In this document: one piece after another, positions 34,486-36,000 of the stretch
How the letters are laid out: each line of letters starts with the position of its first letter
Position numbering within the stretch: the stretch's first letter is position 1
Assembly (NCBI RefSeq): GCF_041146345.1
Contig: NW_027191409.1
Location: 992,001 to 1,056,000 of the forward strand
Reading direction: 5' to 3'
DNA from: Neodothiora populina
Lineage: Eukaryota
DNA length: 64,000 nt
The notes under the pieces: generated by a model
Database searches by the model: none
What the model saw: only the letters and a program-made list of their open reading frames with translations
Told to the model about the DNA's origin: nothing
Made by a program: the position numbers and the translations under genes

Positions 34486-35533
34486 TTACTCGACGTCGGC
34501 CTTGCCCTCGAAGTTCTCGCCCTCGACGAGCTCAGGGATGTCGTCGTCGTCCTCATCCTTCTTCTCCTCGCCCTCGGCGCCCTTTTGCATCGACTGGTAG
34601 GACTCGGCGAGCTTGCGCAGGGATGCGAGTGAGTCGGGTCCGAGCTGGTTCAGGATGCCGGGGACGAGCTCGGTGAGCTCCTTGTCCTCGCCGTTGCCGT
34701 AGATGGCGAAGGTGTTGCTGGGGACGGCGGCGTGCACTGCATTCATGTCAGTCATTTTCGCTCTGCTCTCATTCTTGTGGCCTCCAATATTTCCCCAATT
34801 GCCCGTTCTTGTCACCACTGCAGTCTTTCCAAATTCCTGCTGCTGCTATTCTTCCTATCCTCCCTCTTGCCCAGTTGATGACCTGGATTTTTGCTCCTCC
34901 GCTTGACTCTCCAATCCACCTCTTGTCGTTTGCAACAGAAGAAAAGAAAAAGGCGGGGTATTACTCACCCTTGGGAGCGGCGAAGTGGATGACGTTGCCG
35001 TCAGACTTGAACATGTTGACCTCCTCAATGGCCTGGATGGGCTGGACGTTCATCTTCTTGAGGGTGGTCTGGAGCTTCTTGTCGTCGACACCGGAGGTCT
35101 TGTGAACCTTCTTGACCACACGTCTCGGGGTACCCTTGCCACTGCGCGCAGAGAAAAACACCATAAATGTCAGCCTATAATCCCGAGTCTCGAGTCCTCT
35201 TTCTGTGTCCTCCATTTCATTCCCGCGGGTTTTCGTCCGTCGGCGCAGCGCCGCAAACTGTGTGACTCCACATCCATGGCTTCCTGGCGAATCTTGCGAA
35301 TATTTACAGAGCCGATGGTTTCGCAGCTTCCAAAGCTTTGTGTGTGTGGGAATTTTGGGAGTTCGTTTTTTGCTTACCCTACAATCTCGTGATTAGCTCC
35401 AAGTCATGCGTTATGGCACTCGTTCGGTTGCGAATTTTCCGCAGCGCCGAATCGAAATGACACGGATTTTATTGCACATACCGGTACGCTGAGCGGCCGC
35501 AGCCTGCATGCGTTGGAGCTTTTCCATATCCAT
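34486..35533 (-). CDS. EGD1: Nascent polypeptide-associated complex beta subunit (BTF3)
   Basis: Exons 35533-35482, 35378 (1 nt), 35141-34969, 34736-34486. Product [32 protein letters not shown]...[11 protein letters not shown]...IEEVNMFK...[22 protein letters not shown]...[14 protein letters not shown]...DDIPELV. Confidence 0.95.
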
Positions 35534-36000
35534 CTTTGCTGAGTTTAGGAGGAGGAGCGGGGTTAACTGGGCGGCGCAAGCGAGTCAGAAATTGCTGTGA
35601 TACGGGTGGTTTGTCTGGGACGGCAGTTTTATACACACAAGTTAAACCGAGAAGAGAGCTTGAGATGTGGTGGTTGGATCTTCTGGATTGCCTACTACAC
35701 AGCACAGCAGAGACTGAGATTCAATTGCTGGCGTCGCTGCCGACTCTCGCTCAGTTCTCTGCTGCTGTCCGCAGCGTGCACGGGCAATTGTTCGCCGATT
35801 GTGGGCTCGCTAAGCCGCTGCTTAAAATCCTACGTCACGAGCTTCTGCTGTGCTCTGCAGCAACAATAATACACATGCATTTCACCATGATTATACTATC
35901 TTATTGTACCTTGCGCATAGATCAAGTGAAGATGTCACTTATAATCTGATCCTTGTGAAACATGGAAAGCTAGTCGAAGGAGCAAGACGTCTCGCGTCGC

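Follow-up and report, generated by a model that had tools for sequence, protein, structure and literature searches.

In this study, we analysed a stretch of 64,000 nucleotides (nt) from Neodothiora populina, a member of the Dothideales (GCF_041146345.1, contig NW_027191409.1, 992,001-1,056,000). This whole stretch is called the window, and its own coordinates are used throughout. The beta-NAC gene (EGD1/BTF3-type), which lies on the minus strand of the window, very probably contains a real exon of a single nucleotide, the G at 35378, placed between two canonical U2-type GT-AG introns (Table 1). The one-base exon is supported because the donors and acceptors on its two sides are strong, the AG-G-GT arrangement is conserved, and an extra G is present at this point in the intron-free sequences of relatives.

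Between the acceptor of intron 1 and the donor of intron 2 there is exactly one nucleotide (TTGTAG-G-GTAAGC, 35384-35372), and the branch-like motifs GCTAAT and GCTGAC are located 12 nt and 27 nt before their respective AG. When the four coding pieces were joined with the single G included, a NAC-beta protein of 158 amino acids carrying TGGKGTPRR was obtained, and its N-terminal pattern MD..KL..MQ, encoded by exon 1, agrees with that of the orthologues. The mature mRNA would read ...CGT ACC GGT GGC AAG..., with the junction CGTACCGGTGGCAAG, and its glycine codon would be assembled from three exons (G + G + T). An earlier sequence-only reading of this DNA had proposed that the single G is needed for the conserved beta-NAC frame. 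Our translation agreed with this, as the protein of full length with GGKGTPRR was formed with the G, and a premature stop was computed after 47 codons when the G was skipped. Every coordinate and motif given in that reading was recovered on the minus strand, and its naming of the gene as EGD1/beta-NAC was correct, as indicated by the Pfam NAC domain and by the named NAC-beta proteins among the matches. Exon 3 alone matches Pfam NAC PF01849 with an E of 1e-15 and 57.8 bits (cut-off 21.3) over profile positions 1-38 of 57. The protein comparison gave 819 matches, and the best 120 that were analysed (72 NCBI-sourced models and 48 non-NCBI proteins) were 86-100% identical over exon 3. NAC subunit beta is the name given to many of them, the P. 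nodorum entry in Swiss-Prot among these, and the top match, identical at 100% over exon 3, is from N. populina itself.

The splice sites were scored with weight matrices trained on the introns of relatives, and the 19 GT and 28 AG sites of the region were ranked. The donor of intron 2 (35377, 9.1 bits) ranked first and that of intron 1 (35481, 7.5 bits) second, and the acceptors of intron 2 (35142, 6.8 bits) and intron 1 (35379, 5.8 bits) ranked second and third. Retention of intron 1, of intron 2 or of both was found to give a stop after 40, 18 and 40 codons, respectively. An exhaustive scan of GT/GC-AG pairs detected 119 single-intron combinations that are open and in frame with the NAC tail. 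The earlier suggestion that all alternatives shift the frame is thus right for skipping of the G and for retention of intron 1, both of which give premature stops, but it does not hold for nearby alternative GT/AG sites, as these 119 combinations indicate.

The conservation of the junction was examined in a metagenome contig scan with exon 3 as the query, from which the best 80 of 284 relatives were retrieved. Loci in which the intron after exon 3 is still present were taken as the genomic type, and 78 of the 80 qualified. The sequence-only reading had proposed a survey of the AG-G-GT junction in orthologues, and this junction was present in 77 of the 78 genomic-type loci, in the order exon 1 ending in G, GT..YAG, G, GTA.G..YAG, and N-GGC. 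In 72 of the 78 the pattern (...R-I-G, GTNNGN...YAG, G, GTA.G...YAG, N GGC AAG) was parsed automatically, and in five further loci (L001, L021, L026, L027 and L075) AG-G-GTAAGC was seen by eye. The remaining locus, L079, ends 168 nt upstream of exon 3 and cannot be judged.

From the 72 parsed loci, 57 distinct intervening sequences were obtained, and together with the window they formed a set of 58 sequences with 19 different exon-1 peptides. AG-G-GT was present in 58/58 of them, against 5.5 expected from dinucleotide shuffles of the orthologous intervening sequences (9.5% of the shuffles gave an AGGGT parse); with a branch motif also required, 54/58 were observed and 1.0/58 expected. The base at -3 of acceptor 1 is a pyrimidine in 57/58, and donor 2 has A at +3 in 56/58 and G at +5 in 56/58, GTAAGC being its commonest form in relatives (25/58). 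Acceptor 1 is preceded, at a distance of 5-45 nt, by a CTRAY motif in 54/58. Across the orthologues, intron 1 ranges from 61 to 487 nt and intron 2 from 68 to 236 nt. The splice signals are what has been preserved, and selection has maintained this arrangement through a wide drift of the intron lengths.

The loci were placed taxonomically by their best named protein match. Dothideomycetes (Sphaerulina 100%, Ophiobolus 99%), Leotiomycetes (Oidiodendron 99%), Eurotiomycetes (Microsporum 93%, Cladophialophora 86%, Thermoascus 85%) and lichen-forming Lecanoromycetes (Mycoblastus and Lasallia as best named matches) were all represented. Judged by the comparison of these loci, the one-base exon is inherited and common to orthologues whose nearest named relatives belong to these four classes, and the deep conservation of the single-G exon can be regarded as essentially demonstrated.

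Some loci depart from the usual dimensions. L013, L037 and L052 have an intron 1 of 475-487 nt, with a median of 99 nt for this intron, and an intron 2 of 82 nt, and they keep the one-base exon despite such unequal flanks. In L001 (200-560), besides the one-base exon, exon 1 is itself interrupted after MDHEKLAR by a further short intron, the sole such case among the 80 loci.

Sequences of the transcript type were also found in the relatives. The intron-free metagenome contigs L045 and L063 read CGC ATC GGT GGC AAG and CGG ATT GGA GGC AAG, which correspond to exon 1, an extra G and exon 3. Moreover, ..R[IV]G-GKG is found in 23 of the 48 non-NCBI proteins. As these are full open reading frames on contigs of ~1-3 kb, while all genomic loci carry introns, we read them as transcript-derived. 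Contig ends of relatives from two public runs, of which one is a metatranscriptome, read ATT GGA GGC AAG and xTA GGA GGC AAA (IGGKG) after reverse complementing by hand. A cDNA and genomic pair of the same species was not present among the loci; the DNA identity of L045 and L063 with the genomic loci was 77-87%, with best values of 83-87%. Four of the 24 public runs listed were compared with the window, and the exon 1-exon 3 joint (35482/35141) of N. populina was readable in none of them. One gave a DNA-like contig of 211 nt that is identical to the window over 35368-35578 and possibly comes from the same sample as the assembly. The three others gave contigs of other species with intron 3 spliced out, which diverge before exon 1. 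In one run, the two sides of a joint from 35115 to 35505 are separated by undetermined letters.

The 211-nt contig also bears on the quality of the assembly. An assembly indel at an exon boundary had been named by the sequence-only reading as a point on which the structure could fail; the identical contig speaks against an indel at the boundaries from exon 1 through intron 1 and the G to donor 2, three of the four in question, with the reservation that it may share the sample of the assembly. A single-base error in one genome, or a decaying gene copy, would look just like a one-base exon. However, an identical structure was recovered at 77 other loci in many separate assemblies, the public contig shows no difference over its whole span, and all exons are intact and highly conserved, so that we consider such a mimic close to impossible.

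Several points weigh against the one-base exon. The 58 orthologous sequences share descent, and their 58/58 agreement does not represent independent events; four of the 58 have no strict CTRAY motif within 5-45 nt of acceptor 1 on its upstream side. N. populina RNA was not found among the 24 public runs, none of which matched more than 0.16 of the sampled words. Among the in-frame alternatives, which their splice signals do not favour, the most plausible joins the donor at 35477 (GTGCAA, the second GT of GTATGT) to the acceptor at 35142 and gives TGIGKG. The acceptor at 35175 (the AG of TTATAG, 35175-35176, just upstream of the intron 2 branch motif) ranks first of the 28 with 7.3 bits, and its use together with the single G would add 11 in-frame residues. 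Finally, on the mRNA sequence alone a one-base exon looks no different from one intron whose ends are shifted and non-canonical, and the exon is argued only by the conservation of its internal signals. As for the acceptor at 35175, no CTRAY branch motif was seen just upstream of it in the window sequence, and the 11-residue insertion that it predicts is in no orthologue.

A single intron from donor 35477 to acceptor 35142 would give TGIGKGTPRR, with an extra isoleucine, and its product is open as well as in frame. Of the 72 NCBI-sourced models, 16 indeed have one residue too many at the junction (RIGxGK; x = I, D, E, T, N or H), as the GT at +5/+6 of a GTNNGT donor would give; these models fit, as expected, a slide of the predictor to the +5 GT of the first donor. 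However, donor 35477 scores only -0.6 bits, the eighth of the 19 GT sites, and the extra residue is seen neither in the intron-free contigs L045 and L063 nor in the 23 transcript-like proteins of relatives. Nor would this model account for the conserved internal AG-G-GTA.G with its branch site, and we find it most improbable.

The single intron with non-canonical ends would keep the G of the donor GT or that of the acceptor AG (GG-TATGT...CAG or G-GT...GCGCA-G). Formally, it leads to the same mature mRNA, and an aligner would draw it in this way, since the end of exon 1 and the micro-exon are both G. For this, however, a housekeeping gene would have to carry a UA...AG or GU...CA intron. The model also fails to explain why YAG-G-GTA.G stands in 58/58 sequences inside unalignable introns of very different length, most of them with a branch motif 11-27 nt upstream. 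On these grounds we regard it as very unlikely.

The public N. populina model P0001 (165 amino acids, MEDTERGL...) starts at the ATG at 35215 within intron 2, reads through the acceptor and is without the conserved N-terminal MD..KL..MQ segment. If this model were correct, translation would begin there and the upstream exon would lie outside the gene, and P0001 is in fact an open frame in the DNA. But it swaps the conserved segment MD..KL..MQ..R.G, present in the window, in 72 genomic-type loci and in the intron-free contig L045, for residues that are not conserved, and the region that it reads through holds a strong branch site and acceptor. The model is extremely unlikely to be correct, and we read its start inside intron 2 as an annotation artefact.

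The earlier expectation that gene predictors mis-model this structure was borne out by the wrong start of P0001 and by the orthologues, since only 7 of the 72 NCBI-sourced models have the correct junction and 65 are wrong. In addition to the models with one residue too many, six are one residue short (RIGK), 29 have the N-terminal helix but a junction that is otherwise wrong, and 14 miss the helix. In two protein clusters, 13 of the 28 members read RIG-GKG, including several named Dothideomycete models and the Swiss-Prot entry of Phaeosphaeria nodorum. For Phaeosphaeria/Parastagonospora nodorum itself, the NCBI models (154 contigs) read VRI-GKG, whereas Swiss-Prot Q0ULD0 reads VRIG-GKG, and the difference is the glycine that the one-base exon completes. 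Two further models are fusions. P0058 from Aspergillus fumigatus Z5, a model of 375 amino acids named UDP-glucose-4-epimerase, fuses NAC-beta to the neighbouring enzyme, and P0112 from Elsinoe fawcettii, of 454 amino acids, fuses it to a neighbour with short-chain dehydrogenase domains. The failure to model the junction is probably to blame for these two as well.

Table 1. Parts of the beta-NAC gene of N. populina in window coordinates
Feature	Position	Strand	Description
Exon 1, coding part	35482..35533	-	ATG at 35533-35531; ends ...CGT ACC G; gives the first G of the split Gly codon
Intron 1, 103 nt	35379..35481	-	Donor GTATGT; branch-like GCTAAT at 35397-35392; acceptor TTGTAG
One-nucleotide exon (probable), single G	35378..35378	-	Middle base of the Gly codon G-G-T
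Intron 2, 236 nt	35142..35377	-	Donor GTAAGC; branch-like GCTGAC at 35174-35169; acceptor GCGCAG
Exon 3	34969..35141	-	Opens with T (third Gly base), then GGC AAG GGT ACC CCG AGA CGT; first part of the NAC domain
Intron 3, 232 nt	34737..34968	-	GTGAGT...TGCAG
Exon 4, coding part	34486..34736	-	Remaining NAC domain and acidic tail; last sense codon ends at 34489; stop TAA at 34488-34486
ATG within intron 2	35213..35215	-	Start of the public N. populina model P0001

Exon 3 is 86-95% identical to the 80 related metagenome loci, the position of intron 3 is occupied by an intron in 78 of these 80, and spliced contigs of relatives omit it. The protein itself shows some divergence. The residues before and at the split codon are QRTGG (35482-35490, minus strand) in the window vs VRIGG in almost all listed orthologues. 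At the place of the N-terminal basic ribosome-binding motif of NAC beta, RRK(X)nKK, the window reads RRVVKK (35110-35127, minus strand), a stretch that is basic and correctly located but has the first K replaced, and nearly all listed orthologues have RRK.K[KR]. Both this putative ribosome-binding stretch of the N. populina protein and the residues ahead of the split codon are unusually diverged.

With respect to the splicing mechanism, each of the two short introns would be recognised by intron definition, and from general splicing knowledge an exon of one base should then pose no recognition problem. Simultaneous assembly of spliceosomes one base apart would be impossible, and U1 bound on donor 2 (-3 to +6) would cover the AG of acceptor 1. 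Since the two introns cannot hold spliceosomes together, we infer that they are removed one after the other. Such stepwise removal would be akin to recursive splicing, with the difference that a single base stays in the transcript. An order that follows transcription, with intron 1 leaving first, seems more likely, and either order would leave canonical substrates, namely ...CGG-GTAAGC after removal of intron 1 and ...TTGTAG-GTGG after removal of intron 2.

If donor 1 were joined directly to acceptor 2, the frame would shift and the stop after 47 codons would fall in exon 3, upstream of the last intron. The mRNA of this skipped form is likely to be a target of nonsense-mediated decay (NMD). 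That skipping of the G might tune the level of NAC is pure speculation. A wider scenario would take the single-G exon as an ancient, constitutive feature of much of the Pezizomycotina and the most deeply conserved of the published one-base exons compared. The exon would have been kept because an ordered, recursive-like splicing in which the G is occasionally skipped feeds a fixed share of transcripts into NMD and so sets the NAC dosage, and the loss of a flanking intron elsewhere would have given rise to introns positioned one base apart. We consider this scenario as a whole unlikely.

NAC has been described to sense nascent chains inside the ribosomal exit tunnel (PMC13043293), and the product of the gene considered here reportedly occurs in yeast at a nearly one-to-one ratio to ribosomes (PMC11565464). 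One-base exons have until now been little more than curiosities. The survival of one across several fungal classes in the gene of the NAC beta subunit indicates that AG-G-GT is processed precisely and efficiently by the spliceosome of fungi. The beta-NAC junction could therefore serve as a natural substrate for studying the order of removal, the steric exclusion and the skipping of introns that lie one base apart. An intron pair of this kind also offers a ready route to a one-base 'intron sliding', by loss of either intron. The practical cost is seen in annotation, as the 65 wrong NCBI-sourced models lose or alter the N-terminal part of NAC-beta.

In a full-text literature search that does not cover most subscription journals and is no proof of absence, no report of a one-base exon in EGD1, BTF3 or beta-NAC was found. 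A close published case is the one-nucleotide exon of Fusarium CYP621A, which Nelson and Syed (2026, PMC12940212) described as the first known from any fungus and the second overall. It is similar to the beta-NAC exon in being fungal, in having the G in AGGGT as the middle base of a glycine codon of a conserved motif, in its two short canonical introns and in having been missed by automatic annotation. Nelson and Syed also pointed out for CYP621A that a G suits both position +1 of an acceptor and position -1 of a donor (PMC12940212). Their case comprises 20 orthologous genes (24 aligned sequences) of Fusarium species, with read support from SRA (PMC12940212). In contrast, the beta-NAC exon lies in a housekeeping gene for a ribosome-associated chaperone, extends over four classes of the Pezizomycotina by nearest named relatives, and is known from sequence comparison.

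In Arabidopsis, the single-base exon of APC11 is likewise constitutive and required for the frame, and Guo and Liu (2015, PMC4674806) argued for intron definition and a sequential removal that resembles recursive splicing. It differs in that the gene is from a plant, the base is A, and the exon was shown experimentally with reporters (PMC4674806). Both rice paralogues of APC11 are missing an intron, and yet rice cells splice the Arabidopsis construct correctly (PMC4674806). A long-read annotation of Coprinopsis cinerea listed 13 one-nucleotide exons in 13 genes (PMC12230235), and this agrees with our finding in so far as fungal spliceosomes manage such exons more than once per genome. Coprinopsis is, however, a basidiomycete, and in the accessible parts of that report the genes are unnamed and a conservation analysis is not included (PMC12230235). 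NAC terms gave no match in five of its supplementary files (PMC12230235).

Stwintrons of the Pezizomycotina are also complex intervening sequences that are spliced consecutively, and they have been linked to differences of one nucleotide in intron position (Fekete et al., 2017, PMC5587772). A stwintron has one of the external intron's splice signals split by the internal intron (PMC5587772), whereas the beta-NAC introns are complete and do not overlap. We considered a stwintron at this junction and rejected it, since in the DNA each of the two donors and two acceptors is complete and stands apart from the others, and no signal is interrupted by an internal intron.

The ratchet points of Drosophila are zero-nucleotide recursive sites, in which an acceptor is directly followed by a donor (AG-GT), and they occur in very long introns. 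They resemble what is proposed for the beta-NAC junction, in that the intervening sequence is removed in steps and splicing at the point creates the 5' splice site for the step that follows. They differ in that no base is left, and a zero-nucleotide recursive splice site was rejected for beta-NAC, where one G is retained in the mRNA and the introns are only 103 and 236 nt long. Taken together, these comparisons place the beta-NAC case beside the published one-base exons, to which it adds a housekeeping gene, conservation across four classes of the Pezizomycotina as judged by nearest named relatives, and a wide mis-annotation of the junction.

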